From: Minisyncoccota bacterium
GTDB lineage: Bacteria; Patescibacteriota; Minisyncoccia; Phycocordibacterales; UBA2100
Assembly: GCA_035708165.1 (NCBI GenBank)
Contig: DASSSZ010000001.1
Coordinates: forward strand, 89,772 to 153,771
Direction of reading: 5' to 3'
Length of the DNA stretch: 64,000 bases
Shown: positions 1,473 through 62,595 of the stretch, one piece after another
Layout: each line of letters begins with the position of its first letter
Position numbering within the stretch: the first letter of the stretch is position 1
Notes under the pieces: model-generated
What the model saw: only the letters and a program-made list of their open reading frames with translations
The model's database searches: none
What the model was told of the DNA's origin: nothing
Made by a program: the position numbers and the translations under genes

Positions 1473-1500
1473 CCGCATCGATGCGGTATCATACTCGCAT

Positions 1501-1872
1501 ATGCGCATGCGGATCCTGCAGGCCGTGCTCATCGTGATCGCGCTCGCGATCGTCGGCGGTGCGTCATTCGCGCTGAAAGGGAGCGGCGGCGCCGCGGTCA
1601 CGGTGAACGACTCGTACGAAGGCGGCATCCATCACGTACGCGGCACGGTACCCGTCCCTCCCTCATGCGCAGGAGTCGCCGTCTCGGCCACGGTCGTCGA
1701 CGGCACCGCGCATCTCGCATTCACGCCGGATTATGCTCCGGGCGCGAACGGCGCCTGCACGACCGTGACCGCGCCGCGCCCATACGAGACAAGCTTCAGC
1801 GGAGCACCCGCGCGCGCGTACGAGGCGACCGTCGAGGGACAGCCGGTCCCGGTGCGCATCATCAGCTCATGA
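1501..1872 (+). CDS. Small membrane-anchored hypothetical protein (N-terminal TM helix plus ~95-aa domain with 2 Cys), translationally coupled to the downstream nuclease gene
   Basis: Internal ATG of ORF 1108..1872 directly after the mnmA stop. It is preceded by the perfect palindrome CCGCATCGATGCGG and a TATCATACT -10-like box. The hydrophobic N-terminus is ILQAVLIVIALAIVGGASFAL. Its stop overlaps the next start (ATGA). Confidence 0.5.
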   Translation: MRMRILQAVLIVIALAIVGGASFALKGSGGAAVTVNDSYEGGIHHVRGTVPVPPSCAGVAVSATVVDGTAHLAFTPDYAPGANGACTTVTAPRPYETSFSGAPARAYEATVEGQPVPVRIISS

Positions 1873-2702
1873 GCAGGGAATTGCGGGTCATCAAGGCGGA
1901 CGGTGAGGAAGAGACCTTCGATCCGAGCAAGCTCGAAGCATCGCTCGCGCGGGCAGGCGCCTCGAGCGCAGCGCGCGCGCATATCATCGCGCACATGATG
2001 AAGGCGCTTGAACCTGCGCCGCTCACCACCTCTGAGATCTACCGGCGCGCGTTCGAGCTCCTGAAGAAACGCGAGGGCGCGCCGGTGGCCGCACGGTACT
2101 CCATCAAGCGCGCCATCTTCGATCTCGGGCCATCCGGCTACCCGTTCGAGCAGTTCTTCGCGGAAGTCATGCGCAGCCACGGCTGGCAGGCGCGCCATAG
2201 CGTGATCCTCACGGGCAGGTGCGTCACGCACGAGGTGGACGTTCTCGCGAAGAAGGGCGGCAAGCGCATCGGCATCGAAGCGAAGTTCCACAATACGCCC
2301 GGCATCAAGACCGATGTGAAGGATGCGCTCTATGTCCGCGCGCGGTACCAGGACCTCGCGGAAGCGACCGATCCCGACGATCACGTGGACCAAGGATGGC
2401 TCGTGACGAACACCCGCTTCACCGAAGATGCGATCCGCTACGGCGAGTGCGCCGGCCTCCCCATGATCTCGTGGGACTACCCGCGCCGCGGCAACCTCCT
2501 CGAGCTCATCGAGGAAGGGCAGGTGCACCCGCTGACGGCGCTCACCACGCTTTCGCCCTCGGAGAAGCAGCGGCTGCTCGACAGCCGCATCGTGCTGTGC
2601 CGCGCCGTGGGCGGCAGCAGCCAGCTGCTCCGCGAGCACGGCGTGAAGCCGCAGCGCATACCGGAAATCCAGGATGAAGCCCGCAAGCTCTGCGGGGCAT
2701 AA
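1869..2702 (+). CDS. ATP-cone domain fused to a restriction-endonuclease-like (Mrr-type PD-(D/E)XK) nuclease domain
   Basis: The N-terminal RVIKADGEEETFDPSKLEASLARAG matches the NrdR-type ATP-cone. The C-terminal HEVDVLA...RIGIEAKF gives a D...(D/E)xK motif of the Mrr_cat type. The ATGA overlap with the upstream ORF suggests an operon. Confidence 0.65.
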   Translation: MSRELRVIKADGEEETFDPSKLEASLARAGASSAARAHIIAHMMKALEPAPLTTSEIYRRAFELLKKREGAPVAARYSIKRAIFDLGPSGYPFEQFFAEVMRSHGWQARHSVILTGRCVTHEVDVLAKKGGKRIGIEAKFHNTPGIKTDVKDALYVRARYQDLAEATDPDDHVDQGWLVTNTRFTEDAIRYGECAGLPMISWDYPRRGNLLELIEEGQVHPLTALTTLSPSEKQRLLDSRIVLCRAVGGSSQLLREHGVKPQRIPEIQDEARKLCGA

Positions 2703-2757: not shown

Positions 2758-3357
2758 ATGAACGCACCATTCTGGAAGTCACCTATCCTGTGGGGAATTA
2801 TCGGTTTCATTATCGGGATCCTGATCGGCATGGCTATCGGATGGCGCTGGGCGGATAGCGTCATGAGCGCTGCCGGCACGACCGGCAGCAATACGCAGGC
2901 GACGAGCACGTCCGGGAGCAGCACCGGCACCTCCGGCATGACCGAGGGCACGGGCACGCAATCCACGAGTACGCCCGGCACGCAGGCGTCAAGCAGCACC
3001 GCGGAGGGCGGCGCAGCGCATATCTCAGTGAATGATCAGCCGGCCGGCATGGCCGCCACCGTCTCGTCCGTCACGCTCCCGGCCGCCGGCTGGGTCGCCG
3101 TGCATGAGCTCGGCGAGGACGGCGTGCTTGGCAACGTGCTCGGCGCCGCATGGCTGCCGGCTGGCACCCACGCGGACGCGATCGTTACCCTGCTGCGCGC
3201 GACCAAGCCTGATCAGCAGTACGCGATCGTCCTCTACACCGATAACGGCAACAAGCAGTTCGATCTTCACGCTGACACGCCGATCGCCGGCTCGAACGGC
3301 CAGCCGGTCACGGCGACCTTCACCGCGACCACGCCGGTCGCCCCTGCGGGCCAGTAG
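2758..3357 (+). CDS. Membrane-anchored hypothetical protein with S/T/G-rich linker and C-terminal beta-rich domain
   Basis: N-terminal TM helix ILWGIIGFIIGILIGMAIGW. Low-complexity TSGSSTGTSG linker. Canonical TTGACA -35 box upstream (2733-2738). Confidence 0.5.
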   Translation: MNAPFWKSPILWGIIGFIIGILIGMAIGWRWADSVMSAAGTTGSNTQATSTSGSSTGTSGMTEGTGTQSTSTPGTQASSSTAEGGAAHISVNDQPAGMAATVSSVTLPAAGWVAVHELGEDGVLGNVLGAAWLPAGTHADAIVTLLRATKPDQQYAIVLYTDNGNKQFDLHADTPIAGSNGQPVTATFTATTPVAPAGQ

Positions 3358-3365
3358 CCCTCGCT

Positions 3366-3872
3366 ATGGATGCGCTCAGCCATCTCGCTGATCCGAACCT
3401 GATCATCTTCGGGAAGCTCGCTCTTGCGGCGCTCCTCGGCATGATCATCGGCACTGAGCGCACCACGGCAGGCAAGGGGGCAGGGACGCGCACGTTCTCC
3501 CTGGTGAGCCTCGGCTCCTGCCTCTTCATGACGATCAGCTACACGATCGACAACCAGTTTCTCGGCTACGTGAACTTCGATCCGATGCGGGTCGCTGCAG
3601 GCATCATTACCGGCATCGGCTTCCTCGGCGCAGGCCTTATCGTCTTCCAGGAGCACCGTCTCCAGGGGCTCACGACGGCAGCCGGCCTCTGGGTCGTCGC
3701 CGGCCTCGGCATGGCCGTCGGAAGCGGGATGTACCTCGTCGCGATCTTCGCGACCGCGCTCATCGTGATCGTCTTCACGGCGGTCTGGTTCCTCGAGAAC
3801 CGCATCAAGCAGTGGCTGAATTACCACGAACAGCCCTCGCTCGACCCGCGAATCCCGGGCGAGGAGATCTAG
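3366..3872 (+). CDS. MgtC/SapB family membrane protein
   Basis: Multi-TM protein with the MgtC-like motifs GIITGIGFLGAGLIVF and TTAAGLWVVAGLGMAVG. It starts 9 nt after the preceding gene. Confidence 0.7.
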   Translation: MDALSHLADPNLIIFGKLALAALLGMIIGTERTTAGKGAGTRTFSLVSLGSCLFMTISYTIDNQFLGYVNFDPMRVAAGIITGIGFLGAGLIVFQEHRLQGLTTAAGLWVVAGLGMAVGSGMYLVAIFATALIVIVFTAVWFLENRIKQWLNYHEQPSLDPRIPGEEI

Positions 3873-3918: not shown

Positions 3919-4695
3919 ATGTCCTCGTTCTATACGCCGGACCGCGATCCCCGATGGAACTATGGCGGAGCAAAATGGAGGCTCTCCCGCTCGAAGATCG
4001 AGCTTTTCCTCGAATGCCCGCGCTGCTTCTGGCTTGATAACAAGCTCGGCACGGCACGCCCGAGGGGCCCGGGATTCACGCTCAACATCGCGGTCGACGC
4101 GCTTCTCAAGAAGGAGTTCGATGCGTACCGCGCGAAGGGGACCGCACATCCCCTGATGGCGCGCTACGGCATCGCTGCCGTGCCCTTCCGGCATGCGGAC
4201 CTGGATCGCTGGCGCGAAAATTTCGAAGGGATCGAGTACCGGCATCCGGCGAGCGGCCTCCTGGCCTGCGGCGCTGTCGATGATGTATGGATCGATCCGG
4301 CAGGCGAACTCATCGTGGTCGATTACAAGGCGACATCAAAGGACGGTGACATCAAGGCCCTGGAGGACTCGCCCTGGGCAGCCCAGTATCGCCGGCAGCT
4401 CGGCGTCTACCAATGGCTCTTGCAGCAGAACGGATTCACCGTCTCGAAGCGAGGGTACTTCGTGTACGCGAACGCACGCTCGGACAAGGAGGCGTTCGAC
4501 AGCAGGCTCGAATTCGATGTGACGATCGTGCCGTGCGACGGCGACACGACATGGATGGAAGCCACGCTCGTCGCCATCAGGCAGACGCTCGATTCCGATA
4601 TCATTCCGGCTGCCGGGACGAGCTGCGATTTCTGCCAATACCGGGACGCCGCTGGCAGGAAGCTCCGCTCATACGCCATGAAGGCACATGCATGA
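3919..4695 (+). CDS. PD-(D/E)XK nuclease family protein (Cas4/RecB-like, probable 4Fe-4S cluster)
   Basis: N-terminal CPRCFW Cys, C-terminal Cys triad (C...SCDFC) and a VVDYK core motif. The TATACT -10 box is 6 nt upstream of the ATG. Confidence 0.6.
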   Translation: MSSFYTPDRDPRWNYGGAKWRLSRSKIELFLECPRCFWLDNKLGTARPRGPGFTLNIAVDALLKKEFDAYRAKGTAHPLMARYGIAAVPFRHADLDRWRENFEGIEYRHPASGLLACGAVDDVWIDPAGELIVVDYKATSKDGDIKALEDSPWAAQYRRQLGVYQWLLQQNGFTVSKRGYFVYANARSDKEAFDSRLEFDVTIVPCDGDTTWMEATLVAIRQTLDSDIIPAAGTSCDFCQYRDAAGRKLRSYAMKAHA

Positions 4696-4975
4696 TATGA
4701 AAAGCGACTTCGCAGAACGCGTGCGCGCCGTAGTGCGGGCGATCCCGCAGGGCGAGACCATGACATACGGGCAGGTAGCGGCAGCGGCCGGGCATCCGGG
4801 CGCTGCGCGCGCCGTAGGCTCGATCATGAGACGCAATTACGATCCGAGCGTCCCGTGCCATCGCGTCATCCGCGCCAACGGGACGCTCGGCGAGTATAAC
4901 CGCGGCGGCCCGGAGGAGAAGCGCCGGAAGCTCATAGCGGAAGGCGTGCCCTTCGAGAGTGGGGATAACTCGTGA
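4688..4975 (+). CDS. Minimal MGMT-family protein (methylated-DNA-protein-cysteine methyltransferase DNA-binding domain with PCHRV active site)
   Basis: TYGQVAAAAG...PCHRVIRANG is the Ogt C-domain signature. It overlaps the upstream nuclease gene by 8 nt. Confidence 0.7.
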   Translation: MHDMKSDFAERVRAVVRAIPQGETMTYGQVAAAAGHPGAARAVGSIMRRNYDPSVPCHRVIRANGTLGEYNRGGPEEKRRKLIAEGVPFESGDNS

Positions 4976-5374: not shown

Positions 5375-6052
5375 ATGGCAGGCGCGGCGGTGCGGATCGA
5401 GCCCTCATGGAAGGAAGCGCTCGCGGGAGAATTCGACCAGGGCTACTTCCGCGCACTCACCCAATTCGTACGGGAGGAGTACCAGCATGCGATCATCTAT
5501 CCTCCGCCTCGCGACATCTTCCGTGCCTTCGAGCTCGCGCCATTCGATGCGGTCAAGGTCGTGATCCTCGGGCAGGATCCGTATCACGGGCCCGGGCAGG
5601 CGAACGGGCTATGCTTCGCCGTAGGCGCGGACGCGGCGCTGCCGCCATCGCTCCAGAACATCTTCAAGGAGATCGAGTCCGATCTCGGGAAGCCGCTGCT
5701 CCATCGGACGGGCGATCTTGCGCGCTGGGCCGCGCAGGGCGTGCTCCTGCTCAACGCGACGCTGACCGTCCGCGCAAGGAGCGCCGGTTCGCACCAGGGG
5801 AAAGGCTGGGAGGAATTCACCGATGCTGCCATCAAGGCGCTCTCCGAGCGGCGCGCGCACCTGGTCTTCATCCTCTGGGGGAACTACGCGAAGAAGAAAG
5901 GCGCGCACATCGACCGCAACAAGCATCTCGTCATCGAGTCGGCGCACCCGTCGCCCTTCGCCGCACGCTACGGCTTCTTCGGCAGCAAGCCGTTCAGCAG
6001 GGCAAACGCATACCTCGAAGCCCACGGGGAGCAGGCGATCGATTGGCTCTAG
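5375..6052 (+). CDS. ung: Uracil-DNA glycosylase (family 1)
   Basis: The motifs VVILGQDPYHG, GLCFAV and LLLNATLTV, plus HPSPFAA, are Ung signatures. TATACT lies 7 nt upstream of the ATG. Confidence 0.85.
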   Translation: MAGAAVRIEPSWKEALAGEFDQGYFRALTQFVREEYQHAIIYPPPRDIFRAFELAPFDAVKVVILGQDPYHGPGQANGLCFAVGADAALPPSLQNIFKEIESDLGKPLLHRTGDLARWAAQGVLLLNATLTVRARSAGSHQGKGWEEFTDAAIKALSERRAHLVFILWGNYAKKKGAHIDRNKHLVIESAHPSPFAARYGFFGSKPFSRANAYLEAHGEQAIDWL

Positions 6053-32415: not shown

Positions 32416-33363
32416 ATGTCAGACGCTAAGAAACGGCTCCTTTCGGGCGTCAAGCCGACCGGCAGGCCGCATATCGGCAATTACTTCGGCGCGATGAAGC
32501 AGTTCGTCGACCTTGCCGGAAGCCACGAGAGCTTCGTCTTCGTCGCGGATTACCATGCGCTCAACTTCGTGCAGGACGGGAGCGAGATGCGCCAGCTCAT
32601 CATCGGCCTCGTGAAGGACTATCTCGCGATCGGGCTCGACCCGGCGCAGGTGACGCTTTTCAAGCAGTCCGACGTGAGCGAGCATGCGGAGCTCGCGTGG
32701 ATCTTCGATACCATCACCACGATGCCGTACCTCATGCGGGCGCATGCATTCAAGGACGCGGAAGCCAAGAGCAAGGAGATCAGCGTCGGCACCTTCAACT
32801 ACCCGATGCTCATGGCGGCCGACATCCTGCTCTATGATGCTGATGCAGTCCCGGTAGGGCAGGACCAGAAGCAGCATATCGAGTATGCGCGCGATACGGC
32901 GGAGAAATTCAACCGCATCTTCGGCGAGACCTTCGCGCTCCCGGAAGAGATCATCCCTGAGGCGGTCGCTACCGTGCCCGGGACCGACGGGCGCAAGATG
33001 AGCAAGAGCTACGGCAACACCATCCCGCTCTTCGGAAGCCGGGAGGAGATCGAGAAGGCCGTGATGGGCATCGTGACTGACTCCGCGGCCGGCCGGCCGG
33101 CGAATGTCTACGCCATCCATGCGCTCCTCAAGCCGCAGGCGGAGCTCGAGTCGCTCTATGCAGCGAACGAGGGGAGTTACAAAGCCCTCAAGGAAGCCCT
33201 GATCGAGGACTTGGACGCATTCATCGCTCCGCTGCGCGAGAAGCGCGATGCGATCTCCGATGAGGAGGCGATCAGCGTGCTCTCGGAAGGTGGCAGGAAA
33301 GCGAAAGCCATCGCATCCGCGAAGATGGCGGACGTCCGCCGGAAGATCGGCGTTACCCTCTAA
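32416..33363 (+). CDS. trpS: Tryptophan--tRNA ligase
   Basis: The HIGN motif (PTGRPHIGNYFG) and KMSKS (KMSKSYGN). 315 aa. Confidence 0.9.
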   Translation: MSDAKKRLLSGVKPTGRPHIGNYFGAMKQFVDLAGSHESFVFVADYHALNFVQDGSEMRQLIIGLVKDYLAIGLDPAQVTLFKQSDVSEHAELAWIFDTITTMPYLMRAHAFKDAEAKSKEISVGTFNYPMLMAADILLYDADAVPVGQDQKQHIEYARDTAEKFNRIFGETFALPEEIIPEAVATVPGTDGRKMSKSYGNTIPLFGSREEIEKAVMGIVTDSAAGRPANVYAIHALLKPQAELESLYAANEGSYKALKEALIEDLDAFIAPLREKRDAISDEEAISVLSEGGRKAKAIASAKMADVRRKIGVTL

Positions 33364-41932: not shown

Positions 41933-43153
41933 ATGTCCGCGATCCGTTTCCGATTGGCCGCCTCTGCCGCGCTGATTGCCTGCCTCATGCCGCTTGGCAT
42001 CGCGCGCGGAGCGCTTGCGGCAAGCGCGAGCGATATCACCTCGCAGATCGCGCAGCTGAACGCGAAGATCGCGCAGTACGAAGCAGAGATCAAGCAGGCC
42101 GGCGCCGATAAGAAGACGCTCCAAGCGGCGATCGATTCGCTCGACCTTTCGCGCAAGAAGCTGGAGTCGCAGGTCTCCCTCGTGCAGGCGCAGATCGCGA
42201 AGACGCAGGGCACCATCGACGATCTCGATCAGCAGATCAACGAGACCGAGGCCATCGTTGAGCAGGGCCAGCAAGGGCTCGCGGAGACGATCCGCGCAGT
42301 CGCGCAGGCCGATGACGACACGCTCGTCCTGCAGCTCCTCTCATCCGGGAGCCTGGCATCCGCATGGAGCAACTTCGACGCTGACGGCAGCGTCGAGGAT
42401 GCGATCCGTACGCAAGTCGACGCGCTCGAGCAGCAGGAGCTCACGCTCGCGACGCAAAAGACGCAGCAGGAGCGCCAGCAGGAGACGCTAGCCGACCAGC
42501 GCTCCTCCCTGAAGAGCCAGCAGGCGACGCTCGCGCAGACCGAGGCTTCGAAAGCGGACCTCCTGACCGAGACGGAAGGGAAGGAATCGAAATACGAGCA
42601 GCTGCTCGCTTCCGCGCAGGCGGAGCTCGCGAGCTTCTCGAAGTTCGCGCAGAATGCCGGCGGCTCGGGCATCGTCGGCGAGCAGACGGTCTGCGATGCC
42701 TGGGGCTGCTACTACAACCAGCGCGATGCCGCCTGGGGCACGATGGCGCTCGACGGGACCTCGTATAAGCTCGCGAGCGATGGCTGCCTCGTGACCGCGA
42801 TGGCGATGGTCATGACGCACTACGGCTACCGCGACGTGACTCCGATCACCATCAACAGCAACCCTTCCAACTTCGCCTCGTACGCCCCTGCGTACCTGCT
42901 CAATTCGATCGTCGTCGACGGGGTGACCGCGACGCGCACAACCGCGAGCATCGATGCGACGCTCGCGGGGGGCGACCCGGTCATCGTGGGGCTGCATGCC
43001 TACGGCGGTACGCACTTCGTCGTGCTCGTCTCAGGGAGCAAGGGGAACTACGTGATGCGCGACCCGTACATCTCGAACGGCAAGGACATCAGCTTCTCCG
43101 CGCACTACTCGATGGACGAGATCTACGAGGTAGGGAAGGTCGTCATCAGCTAG
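41933..43153 (+). CDS. Secreted coiled-coil protein with C-terminal papain-like cysteine peptidase domain (C39-like)
   Basis: A signal peptide, about 230 aa of coiled coil, then DGCLVTAMAMVMTHYG (catalytic Cys) and GGTHFVVLV (His). Confidence 0.6.
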   Translation: MSAIRFRLAASAALIACLMPLGIARGALAASASDITSQIAQLNAKIAQYEAEIKQAGADKKTLQAAIDSLDLSRKKLESQVSLVQAQIAKTQGTIDDLDQQINETEAIVEQGQQGLAETIRAVAQADDDTLVLQLLSSGSLASAWSNFDADGSVEDAIRTQVDALEQQELTLATQKTQQERQQETLADQRSSLKSQQATLAQTEASKADLLTETEGKESKYEQLLASAQAELASFSKFAQNAGGSGIVGEQTVCDAWGCYYNQRDAAWGTMALDGTSYKLASDGCLVTAMAMVMTHYGYRDVTPITINSNPSNFASYAPAYLLNSIVVDGVTATRTTASIDATLAGGDPVIVGLHAYGGTHFVVLVSGSKGNYVMRDPYISNGKDISFSAHYSMDEIYEVGKVVIS

Positions 43154-43154
43154 C

Positions 43155-44495
43155 ATGCAGGGAGGGAAGCGGACATACCGGGCATGTGCCCGTATCGCGG
43201 CAGCACTCTGCGCCATCCTGCTCGCCATGCCGGCCGCAGCATTCGCCGCTGCGGCCACCACGACGGCGAGCGGCATCCAGCAGCAGATCGATGATCACAA
43301 CGCACAGATCGCGCAGCTCAAGGCGCAGATCGCCCAGTATCAATCCGAACTCGACGCCACGACCGAGCAGAAGCAGACGCTTCAGAGCGCTCTCGATCAG
43401 CTCGACCTCTCGCGGCGCAAGATCAGCGCGCAGGTCTCCGTCGCGCAGAACCAGATCAGCGCGACGCAGCTCGAGATCACGCAGCTCGGCGGCACGATCG
43501 ACGATACGCAGGCTTCGATCGAGACGGAGAACGAAGGCCTCGCGCAATCGCTCCGCGCGCTCAATGAGAGCGACCGGGAGCCGCTCGCGCTCATGGTGTT
43601 CGGGGCCGATTCCCTGAGCGATATCTGGGAGGATGCGGACGCGATCGCGCAATTCGAGGATCACCTGCAGGCGCAGATCCAGACGCTCGCCGCGAACAAG
43701 GCGGATCTCGAGGACGCGAAGGCGAAGTCCGAGGCGAAGCAGCAGCAGCTCATCGCGGCGAAGAACGATCTCACGGATCAGGAGCACGCGCTCGACGTGA
43801 ACCGTTCGCAGCAGGCGGCGCTTCTCGCGCAGACGAAGGACAAGGAGTCGAATTACCAGCAGCTGATCGCGCAGAAGAAGGCCGCCGAAGCCCAATTCGA
43901 GGATGAGCTCACCGACCTCGAGTCGAAGCTCCAGTACACGCTCAATCCCGCGACCATCCCGACGCGCGGCACCGCTGTGCTCTCCTGGCCCCTGGACCAC
44001 ATCCGGGTCACGCAGTACTTCGGCGATACGGATTTCTCGCGGACGGGCGCCTACGACGGCAAGGGACACAACGGCGTGGACTTCGCCGCTGCGATCGGCA
44101 CGCCGGTCTATGCGGCGGCGGACGGCGTCGTCGCCGATACGGGCAACACCGACAAGGGCGGCTGCTACTCGTACGGCAAGTGGATCCTCCTGCAGTATCC
44201 GGACGGCCTCTCATCCATCTACGGCCATCTTTCCGAGATCGACGTCGCCCCGGGCCAGGCGGTCGCAGACGGCCAGCGGATCGGCTACTCGGGCTTTACC
44301 GGCTACGCGACGGGGCCGCACCTCCACTTCGGCCTCTTCGTCACTGATGCCGTGAAGGTCATGAACCTGGGGACCTGGTATGCGCAGGAGGGCGCGGATG
44401 ACACGACGCCGTGCGCGAAGGCGGGCGTCTCGATCCCGGTCGCCCCGCTCAACGGCTACCTCAACCCGCTCGACTATCTCCCGAAGCTCTCCTAG
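43155..44495 (+). CDS. Secreted coiled-coil M23 metallopeptidase (EnvC/LytM-like)
   Basis: A signal peptide, a coiled coil paralogous to the preceding gene, and the C-terminal M23 motifs HNGVDFAA and GPHLHFG. Confidence 0.75.
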   Translation: MQGGKRTYRACARIAAALCAILLAMPAAAFAAAATTTASGIQQQIDDHNAQIAQLKAQIAQYQSELDATTEQKQTLQSALDQLDLSRRKISAQVSVAQNQISATQLEITQLGGTIDDTQASIETENEGLAQSLRALNESDREPLALMVFGADSLSDIWEDADAIAQFEDHLQAQIQTLAANKADLEDAKAKSEAKQQQLIAAKNDLTDQEHALDVNRSQQAALLAQTKDKESNYQQLIAQKKAAEAQFEDELTDLESKLQYTLNPATIPTRGTAVLSWPLDHIRVTQYFGDTDFSRTGAYDGKGHNGVDFAAAIGTPVYAAADGVVADTGNTDKGGCYSYGKWILLQYPDGLSSIYGHLSEIDVAPGQAVADGQRIGYSGFTGYATGPHLHFGLFVTDAVKVMNLGTWYAQEGADDTTPCAKAGVSIPVAPLNGYLNPLDYLPKLS

Positions 44496-62514: not shown

Positions 62515-62523
62515 GGTCATTTG

Positions 62524-62595
62524 TGACCCTACCGGGAGTCGAACCCGGATTACCGCCGTGAGAGGGCGATGTCCTAACCATTAGACGATAGGGCC
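62524..62595 (-). tRNA. tRNA-Glu (anticodon CUC)
   Basis: Cloverleaf folded by hand. Acceptor GGCCCTA/TAGGGTC, D-arm GTCT-AATGGTTA-GGAC, anticodon arm TCGCC-CTCTCAC-GGCGG, T-arm CCGGG-TTCGACT-CCCGG. Discriminator A. CCA is not encoded. Confidence 0.8.

Follow-up and report, generated by a model that had tools for sequence, protein, structure and literature searches.

What does a protein do that joins an ATP-cone, the nucleotide-sensing switch of ribonucleotide reductases, to the catalytic domain of a Mrr-type restriction enzyme? The question is raised by a gene, here called X, in a 64,000-nucleotide stretch of contig DASSSZ010000001.1 (positions 89,772 to 153,771) from a Minisyncoccota bacterium; the whole of this stretch is hereafter the window. 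The ATP-cone is the classic allosteric switch of deoxynucleoside triphosphate (dNTP) synthesis, with characterised roles in ribonucleotide reductases (RNRs) and in NrdR; ATP-cones bind ATP or dATP and act through oligomeric state or domain arrangement. An earlier note, made from the letters of the window alone, had taken X for a nuclease gated by nucleotide pools, possibly a defence or stress-response effector partnered with a membrane protein encoded just upstream. We find that X is a further member of a large family, AF1548/COG1787, which is already in the databases with a partial crystal structure, and is in that sense not a discovery. As to its role, we propose, with a probability of about one half, that X is an adenine-nucleotide-gated DNA endonuclease serving nucleic-acid turnover, salvage or repair, and not restriction or anti-phage defence.

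Domain composition and catalytic site of X

1869-2702, + strand: gene X, 277 amino acids (aa), AF1548/COG1787 family, with an ATP-cone, a Mrr-type PD-(D/E)XK nuclease domain and a domain like the double helix-hairpin-helix fold, (HhH)2
1884-2114, + strand: ATP-cone of X, aa 6-82 (Pfam PF03477)
2124-2468, + strand: Mrr-type PD-(D/E)XK nuclease domain of X, aa ~86-200 (Pfam PF04471)
2148-2150, 2238-2240, 2277-2279 and 2283-2285, + strand: codons of the predicted catalytic residues E94, D124, E137 and K139
2481-2699, + strand: C-terminal helical domain of X, aa ~205-277, AF1548-like_C, (HhH)2-like

The fusion of an ATP-cone with a Mrr-like nuclease, as proposed by the earlier note, was confirmed by Pfam, which places both domains above their cut-offs. 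The ATP-cone profile (PF03477) scored 30.0 bits against a cut-off of 25.8, with aa 6-82 aligned to positions 2-84 of the 88 in the profile, and Mrr_cat (PF04471) scored 34.5 bits against a cut-off of 21 over aa 89-194. The match of AF1548-like_C (PF22357) to aa 234-274 was weak, at 14.9 bits and below the cut-off of 23.9. The Pfam matches of X were confined to the ATP-cone, Mrr_cat and two weak families, and no NCBIfam model matched. The C-terminal domain, the upstream mnmA gene and the crystal structure 1Y88 of a homologue had been overlooked in the earlier note, which had the two other domains right. NCBI holds a protein identical to X, "restriction endonuclease [Candidatus Paceibacterota]", from a metagenome-assembled genome.

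The hallmarks of both domains are in place. In the cone, the conserved lysine of the N-terminal beta-hairpin, the next lysine and the four-helix fold, which make up the nucleotide site, are all present; the cone of the X family profile aligned to residues 50-127 of Escherichia coli NrdR, and the VxK...F..xK signature is kept. The cone lysines presumably correspond to K9 and K21 of NrdA. In the nuclease domain the (E)...D...(D/E)xK motif is intact, and D124, E137 and K139 aligned with the predicted catalytic residues D38, E51 and K53 of AF1548. The motifs quoted from the sequence in the earlier note, RVIKADGEEETFDPSKLEASLARAG, H-E-V-D and I-E-A-K, were all found in X.

Residue conservation was measured over an alignment of 109 diverse relatives (34-56% identity). 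Thirteen residues were invariant (G87, G90, F93, E94, G116, E122, D124, E137, K139, R159, D162, N181 and P221), and K9, G12, F17, K21, S25, T54 and H121 were conserved in at least 90% of the relatives. The same columns were at least 90% conserved in a 40-sequence alignment across candidate phyla radiation (CPR) bacteria, Bacteroidota and Archaea. These alignments point to strong purifying selection at the active site. Loss of the catalytic D/E-x-K residues, which the earlier note had named as fatal to its proposal, is excluded by the invariance of E94, D124, E137 and K139, and "nucleotide-sensing nuclease" is a fair molecular description of a protein with a predicted cone and an intact, invariant catalytic set.

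Predicted structure of X

The AlphaFold2 model of X, built on the 109 diverse relatives, reached a predicted local distance difference test score (pLDDT) of 97 and a predicted template modelling score (pTM) of 0.92, a confidence which indicates that the three domains are packed as a single rigid body. Modelling of the fusion had been suggested in the earlier note; the cone and nuclease folds were both recovered in the resulting three-domain model. A phmmer search of the PDB with X gave one relative, 1Y88 (AF1548), at an E-value of 3.7e-31 over aa 96-276, and 1Y88 was also the top Foldseek match of the model in the PDB (E 2.4e-16, TM-score 0.82). For the nuclease part, 1Y88 was followed by Mrr-like catalytic domains (AspBHI, MspJI), NucS (2vld), Can2 and Cdn1. 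The N-terminal part matched the ATP-cones of NrdR and NrdB, with root-mean-square deviations (rmsd) of 2.0-2.4 Å.

When aa 202-277 were modelled separately (pLDDT 74.5, a moderate confidence), the best Foldseek match was again 1Y88. Next came the N-terminal (HhH)2 DNA-binding domains of Rad51/RadA, with an rmsd of ~1.8 Å over ~58 residues, and BAF was also among the matches; the E-values for Rad51/RadA and BAF are non-significant, the domain being short. The (HhH)2-like nature of the modelled C-terminal domain is thus a lead, not proof.

Size, spread and previous descriptions of the family

A HMMER scan of 1.84 billion representatives returned 1087 clusters (50% identity) at E <= 1e-3, 424 of them at E <= 1e-30. 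Among the best 150 of the 1087 clusters, nearly all were 266-311 aa long and covered the query from end to end. The closest relatives of X belong to Kaiserbacteria and other Parcubacteria. There is a large Bacteroidota branch (Pontibacter, Adhaeribacter, Sporocytophaga, Flavobacterium, Cyclobacterium and Saprospiraceae), one copy in Chlamydiota, and an archaeal branch comprising Archaeoglobi, Bathyarchaeia, Korarchaeota, Aenigmarchaeota, Nanoarchaeota and Altiarchaeales.

Membership of X in the AF1548/COG1787 family is supported by the family profile, which matched 1Y88 at E 4.4e-53. The crystallised AF1548 chain in 1Y88 (199 aa) is devoid of an ATP-cone. However, a metagenome-assembled protein that is 99% identical to AF1548 (P0391, 265 aa; locus L100, 6001-6798) carries one, indicating that the crystallised 199-aa gene model missed the regulatory domain. 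Apparently, the start codon of the deposited gene model was set too late.

Steczkiewicz et al. assigned 1y88/COG1787 to the Mrr_cat group among the PD-(D/E)XK enzymes (PMC3424549), and AF1548 appears as a predicted restriction endonuclease in the Global Ocean Sampling paper (PMC1821046). Some family members are labelled "Holliday junction resolvase" by JGI. Our literature search gave no experimental study of any family member and no paper on an ATP-cone nuclease, and a Prochlorococcus preprint names COG1787 generically only. The remark of the earlier note that the protein is functionally uncharacterised was borne out by this search for the whole family.

Gene order in CPR bacteria

426-1472, + strand: mnmA, tRNA 2-thiouridylase (Pfam tRNA_Me_trans, E 2.7e-64), with its TAG stop at 1470-1472
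2758-3357, + strand: DUF7282 membrane protein (Pfam), in the array downstream of X
3366-3872, + strand: MgtC (Pfam), in the downstream array
3919-4695, + strand: stand-alone Cas4-like PD-(D/E)XK nuclease (PDDEXK_1; PADLOC Cas4, E 1e-10)
4688-4975, + strand: mini-Ogt, 95 aa, with a PCHRV motif (Pfam), in the downstream array
~5375-6052, after mini-Ogt: uracil-DNA glycosylase (UDG)

Collection scans gave 91 X loci, from 11 GTDB genomes and 80 metagenome contigs. Linkage to mnmA was counted where the upstream flank of X reached at least 1.3 kb, which left 63 loci, L009 being tallied by hand. In 51 of these, mnmA directly precedes X on the same strand. It frequently overlaps X or stops at most 60 nt before it, and overlap is frequent where the small upstream open reading frame, ORF-A (see below), is absent. 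The usual CPR array reads mltG, mnmA, (ORF-A), X, (DUF7282 and/or MgtC), Cas4-like nuclease, mini-Ogt and (UDG), with optional genes in brackets. Of the 47 mnmA-linked loci with at least 2.5 kb downstream, 35 had the Cas4-like gene, 30 Ogt, 21 MgtC and 12 DUF7282. The Cas4-like gene stands alone: we noticed neither cas genes nor repeat arrays in any of the loci, but ran no search for repeats.

Across the 51 loci, X is on average 51.0% identical to its relatives, compared with 48.9% for MnmA. The GC content at third codon positions (GC3) of X is 0.86, the same as for alaS, gltX and cysS in the window, where X is single-copy. The rest of the window, judged by eye from the translations, encodes ribosomal proteins, rpoA, infA and tRNA synthetases. 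Taken together, the mnmA synteny, the MnmA-like conservation, the native GC3 and the core-gene surroundings make X look like a housekeeping gene that Paceibacterota-type CPR bacteria keep in single copy and inherit vertically.

Elsewhere in the window, the sole RNA gene detected with ARAGORN and Rfam was a tRNA-Glu(CTC) at 62523-62595 on the - strand. Two adjacent ORFs, 41933-43153 (~406 aa) and 43155-44495 (~446 aa), encode proteins whose N-termini resemble signal peptides and whose coiled-coil-like starts are alike (…IAQLNAKIAQYEAEIKQ… and …IAQLKAQIAQYQSELD…, respectively). They may be tandem paralogues.

ORF-A, the palindrome and the promoter-like box upstream of X

1473-1486: perfect 14-bp palindrome CCGCATCGATGCGG, right after the mnmA stop and followed by TATCATACT
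1487-1495, + strand: -10-like element TATCAT / CATACT, 5-8 nt before the ORF-A ATG
1501-1872, + strand: ORF-A, 123 aa, with an N-terminal transmembrane (TM) helix at aa ~5-25 and a ~95-aa domain

The TGA stop of ORF-A (1870-1872) overlaps the ATG of X as ATGA, so that the overlap with a 123-aa TM-anchored ORF reported in the earlier note is confirmed in the sequence. The upstream ORF is genuine: 20 homologues share with it an N-terminal hydrophobic helix and a ~100-aa domain with a common motif, RD..G.H.LSG.V.VP..C...F.TW..P...C...PR.F...FAP..G..F, the copy in the window being the most divergent of the 21 aligned. In most loci with ORF-A, X starts 0-6 nt past its stop, which indicates that its membership in the operon is real. 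No match to ORF-A was found in the Pfam, NCBIfam or PADLOC libraries.

Of the 51 loci with mnmA linkage, 15 carry ORF-A between mnmA and X, and every one of them belongs to the clade whose X is at least 58% identical to that of the window. Even there it has been lost from three loci (L018, L023 and L028), and L046 has one divergent copy. With this distribution and no domain found, ORF-A was rejected as an obligate partner of X; it is a clade-specific, dispensable local add-on and not a family-wide partner. The membrane partnership of the earlier note does not hold for homologues that mostly go without ORF-A. They neither retain the membrane gene nor leave housekeeping contexts, two observations that the note itself had listed as damaging to its proposal; a known function, listed alongside them, did not turn up. 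What survives of the membrane link is a looser sense, namely that other lineages often couple X tightly to membrane transporter genes.

The palindrome at 1473-1486 is real, and its sequence occurs once in the window. It is neither exceptional nor conserved. The window contains 20 perfect 14-bp palindromes, compared with 11.8 ± 3.5 in dinucleotide-preserving shuffles, and the one before ORF-A was missing from the equivalent intergenic region in all 16 related loci. It has no T-run, and its RNA fold does not differ from that of shuffles (z = 0.03). Being no rarer than chance, unconserved, without a T-run and folding like shuffled sequence, it was rejected as an operator or terminator and is probably not functional. 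As an observation on the window as a whole, 14-bp palindromes are ~1.7-fold over-represented, a count of 20 being reached by 1.5% of shuffles, and many of the 20 are GC-rich and intragenic (e.g., 5251, 6527, 10978, 33086-33101 and 41882).

Conservation supports the "-10 box" of the earlier note: ~13 of 17 related loci have a TAnnnT hexamer ~5-11 nt ahead of the ATG of ORF-A. No -35 consensus was found upstream of it. The motif ATCATACnnGCATATG at 1488-1503 has a second copy ahead of the next gene, at 2745-2760 (2 observed against 0.19 expected), and a TTGACA-17-CATCAT promoter is also present in the 2745-2760 region, before the gene that follows X. On sequence grounds, the -10-like box is a probable conserved promoter of a leaderless or near-leaderless ORF-A/X transcript, and the presence of ATCATACnnGCATATG before two consecutive units, together with TAnnnT in relatives, suggests that leaderless mRNAs are usual in the lineage. 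X would be transcribed either together with mnmA or, in the clade of the window, with ORF-A from a leaderless promoter.

Search for X in mobile elements and defence systems

A tblastn search of 50,697 phage records gave no relative of X, and a search of 72,556 plasmids gave two. A degenerate X motif, with which at least 588 relatives had been retrieved from metagenomes, found none among 2.9 million IMG/VR contigs. Predicted viral structures (BFVD) yielded single-domain matches only, with TM-scores of at most 0.39. PADLOC gave nothing significant for X or ORF-A (best E 0.024); members of the X family showed weak domain-level similarity to the CARF_PDDEXK and ZorD nuclease domains. In the window and the annotated loci, X has neither a methyltransferase nor a defence gene as its immediate neighbour; in L094, a Methyltransf_24 gene lies ~2 kb from X on the opposite strand. 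A place for X in a defence island was rejected on this evidence: no PADLOC model, no phage or IMG/VR relatives, 2 of 72,556 plasmids, and viral matches limited to single domains.

Contexts of X outside CPR

In the two plasmids, from Pontibacter actiniarum (L092) and Criblamydia sequanensis (L093), X is the first gene of a cluster that continues with a beta-CASP metallo-beta-lactamase-fold (MBL) hydrolase, a thymidine-phosphorylase-family protein (~500 aa) and phosphoribosyl pyrophosphate (PRPP) synthetase, and a P-type ATPase is nearby. The same cluster is found in Cyclobacterium (L096), where PPK2 and a P-type ATPase follow, and parts of it in two metagenome loci (L066 and L082). In L093, phosphoketolase, glycogen phosphorylase and acetate kinase are also near. 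The Bacteroidota phosphorylase beside X is an archaeal-type nucleoside monophosphate (NMP) phosphorylase, and the beta-CASP protein is nearest to the NCBIfam RNases aCPSF1 and Cas14-type, with scores well below the cut-offs. The cluster is common to unrelated phyla and plasmids, which suggests a horizontally moving module of adenylate or nucleotide catabolism.

In a Bathyarchaeia genome (L101), X overlaps the end of a bona fide AMP phosphorylase gene, whose product scored 617 bits with TIGR03327 (cut-off 535). That gene is preceded by an IF-2B-family gene (ribose-1,5-bisphosphate isomerase family). Ribose-1,5-bisphosphate isomerase and AMP phosphorylase are the first two enzymes of AMP/pentose-bisphosphate nucleotide degradation in archaea, CPR and DPANN (PMC6389311, PMC5113843).

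A second set of neighbours concerns transport. Type IIA (Ca2+-like) P-type ATPases overlap X in L066 (3672-7176), L082 (3378-6855) and L095 (808-4282), and Cu+-type IB pumps are near X in L096-L098. X is overlapped by CorA in Ferroglobus (L099, 4958-6786) and by MscS in Archaeoglobus (L100, 5193-6798), and lies 2 nt from a gene for an amino acid-polyamine-organocation (APC) permease with a universal stress protein (Usp) domain in Geoglobus (L102, 3722-6807). A Mg2+-specific link through the P-type ATPases is weakened, as the adjacent pumps score as Ca2+-type IIA or Cu+-type IB and not as MgtA. A possible wiring to cation (Mg2+/Ca2+) homeostasis is hinted at by the repeated translational coupling of X to genes for P-type ATPases, CorA, MscS and MgtC.

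Proposed function and alternatives

Considering the domain architecture, the invariant catalytic and cone residues, the breadth of the family, its synteny and its absence from mobile elements, we propose the following mechanism. X would be a cytoplasmic, metal-dependent DNA endonuclease whose N-terminal ATP-cone binds adenine nucleotides, be it ATP as opposed to dATP or another adenylate, and thereby switches the enzyme. By analogy to NrdR and RNRs, the switch would probably act through a change in oligomeric state or in the packing of the domains. In NrdR, loading with ATP gives a dodecamer that is unable to bind DNA, and loading with dATP/ATP gives a DNA-binding tetramer (PMC9110341). The (HhH)2-like C-terminal domain of X would hold duplex DNA with no sequence specificity, and the adenylate/dATP state would decide whether the nuclease protomers assemble productively on the DNA so held. 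X would thus couple the breakdown, salvage or repair of DNA (or nucleic acid) to the cellular adenylate/dNTP state, possibly with a split of roles, salvage in CPR and elsewhere the feeding of the AMP-phosphorylase route. We count in favour of this proposal the repair neighbours in CPR (Cas4-like nuclease, Ogt and UDG) and the nucleotide-metabolism neighbours elsewhere. A wider version, in which the AF1548 family is a third functional class of ATP-cone proteins, a universal-type, adenylate/dATP-gated endonuclease that initiates the regulated breakdown of nucleic acid, with a core role in salvage in CPR bacteria unable to make nucleotides, a role in AMP-phosphorylase feeding and a wiring to cation homeostasis, is offered tentatively and would not be our bet.

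Several points weigh against the gated endonuclease. We infer the ligand of X, its gating mechanism, its substrate (DNA or RNA), the direction of its regulation and its physiological role. The (HhH)2 assignment comes from non-significant Foldseek E-values and a 76-residue model of moderate confidence. The mnmA synteny within one phylum may reflect inheritance rather than function. Nucleotide-catabolism neighbours occur in ~6 of the ~27 loci outside the mnmA-linked CPR type, several archaeal contexts are without a common theme, and AMP phosphorylase, beta-CASP, PRPP synthetase and PPK2 are absent within the 64-kb window. Moreover, the gated-endonuclease model does not explain the recurrent coupling to P-type ATPases, CorA, MscS, the APC permease/Usp protein and MgtC.

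The main rival, unlikely in our judgement yet a serious one, is a structure-specific repair or recombination nuclease acting on junctions, flaps or lesions, whose cone licenses cutting when dNTP/ATP suffices. It draws on the CPR array with the Cas4-like exonuclease (35/47), Ogt (30/47) and UDG, on a nuclease fold close to that of the repair endonuclease NucS (2vld), on a C-terminal domain resembling the DNA-binding domain of Rad51/RadA, and on the JGI label "Holliday junction resolvase". However, within a single phylum X may lie close to repair genes through inheritance of the gene order, and no repair genes stand beside X in the examined Bacteroidota, Chlamydiota and archaeal contexts. Geoglobus has a separate, canonical Hjc (PF01870) 2 kb from X, so that X is not the archaeal resolvase there; as the X of the window has no Hjc Pfam match either, an Hjc-type resolvase is unlikely. 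Gene order can also be read in another way: X frequently opens or closes an operon, in which it overlaps or abuts variable cargo with a common theme, including type IIA P-type ATPases (L066, L082 and L095), CorA (L099), MscS (L100), APC permease/Usp (L102), AMP phosphorylase (L101) and, in CPR, MgtC. This would fit a NrdR-like regulator, a sensor of ATP/dATP (or Mg-ATP) that binds DNA or partners and controls neighbouring transporter or nucleotide-metabolism genes; to our knowledge, the repressor NrdR is the only characterised ATP-cone protein besides RNRs. A regulator is nevertheless improbable, for E94, D124, E137 and K139, with H121 and E122, are invariant or nearly so over deep divergence, as expected of an enzyme, X is devoid of a sequence-specific DNA-binding domain, and no conserved operator was found, the local palindrome being unconserved.

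Slightly more doubtful than a regulator is an RNA-directed nuclease that cuts rRNA or tRNA under energy or Mg2+ stress, passing NMPs to AMP phosphorylase and freeing Mg2+. The tRNA enzyme gene mnmA adjoins X in CPR, the beta-CASP neighbour best matches RNases (well below the cut-offs), MgtC and CorA are Mg2+-related neighbours, and AMP phosphorylase uses NMPs (PMC6389311). On the other hand, an (HhH)2-like domain and a Mrr-type core are features typically seen in enzymes that act on DNA, X has no RNA-binding domain, and the P-type ATPases next to it belong to the Ca2+-like or Cu+ types and not to the MgtA type. The poorest prospects are those of the anti-phage or abortive-infection effector, in which perturbed ATP/dATP pools would unleash the nuclease, possibly with a membrane protein. 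The layout of a sensor with a PD-(D/E)XK nuclease is that of the known effectors Can2, Cdn1 and Cap4, which are among the fold matches, family members have weak domain-level PADLOC matches to CARF_PDDEXK and the ZorD nuclease domain, and two copies are plasmid-borne. Against this stand the stable mnmA synteny, the housekeeping-level conservation and the native composition, the lack of significant PADLOC matches for X and ORF-A, the lack of defence genes among identified neighbours in the inspected loci and of an adjacent DNA methyltransferase, the absence of X from the phage and viral collections, and the absence of the membrane gene from most family members. The defence or stress-response role suggested in the earlier note is not supported by a gene that is syntenic with mnmA, native in composition, without phage or IMG/VR relatives and part of no PADLOC system.

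Significance

If an ATP-cone does control a nuclease, the switch would extend from the synthesis of DNA precursors to the destruction of nucleic acid. The family is large, widely distributed and strongly conserved, and among Paceibacterota-type CPR bacteria it is widespread and keeps its synteny. CPR bacteria depend on scavenged nucleotides. In the Paceibacterota type, metabolic capacities are limited and the AMP nucleoside pathway is present (PMC5113843, PMC6389311). The function of X could therefore bear on how ultra-small symbionts obtain or ration nucleotides. The cross-domain set of X contexts offers testable hypotheses on a putative ATP-cone-controlled nuclease. With culturable Bacteroidota members and a solved partial structure, the family is experimentally tractable, and the apparent lack of the regulatory domain in 1Y88 should be useful to anyone revisiting that structure.

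Comparison with known systems

Of the systems with a similar layout, Can2/Card1, Cdn1 and Cap4 combine a small-molecule sensor with a PD-(D/E)XK nuclease and are among the fold matches of X and the domain-level PADLOC matches of its family. However, their sensor is a CARF or SAVED domain in place of the ATP-cone, and the nuclease domains alone align. CRISPR, CBASS (cyclic-oligonucleotide-based antiphage signalling) or other signalling genes are not found near X, the context of which is housekeeping. E. coli Mrr, MspJI and AspBHI resemble X in the catalytic domain, which is Pfam Mrr_cat with a fold like the AspBHI and MspJI nuclease domains. Unlike these type IV enzymes, X has no Mrr_N or SRA-like reader of modified DNA detectable with Pfam and carries an ATP-cone instead; its gene is core and syntenic, whereas restriction enzymes are patchy in distribution.

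AF1548 of Archaeoglobus fulgidus (1Y88) is a direct homologue of X (33% identity, TM-score 0.82), with the nuclease core, the catalytic D/E/K residues and the C-terminal helical domain all in common. It differs in being archaeal, in the position of its gene, which follows an MscS channel gene and not mnmA, and in the crystallised 199-aa construct, which lacks the cone that X has; its annotation as a restriction endonuclease is a prediction only (PMC1821046). NrdR shares the other half of X. Its ATP-cone is alignable to that of X (rmsd ~2.2 Å), and its switching between oligomers, by which adenine nucleotides control access to DNA, is a likely analogue for the mode of action of X. In NrdR a Zn-ribbon precedes the cone, whereas X has none, its cone starting at residue 6, and no RNR genes are near X. 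The output differs accordingly: in NrdR it is a DNA-reading ribbon, and in X a catalytically intact nuclease.

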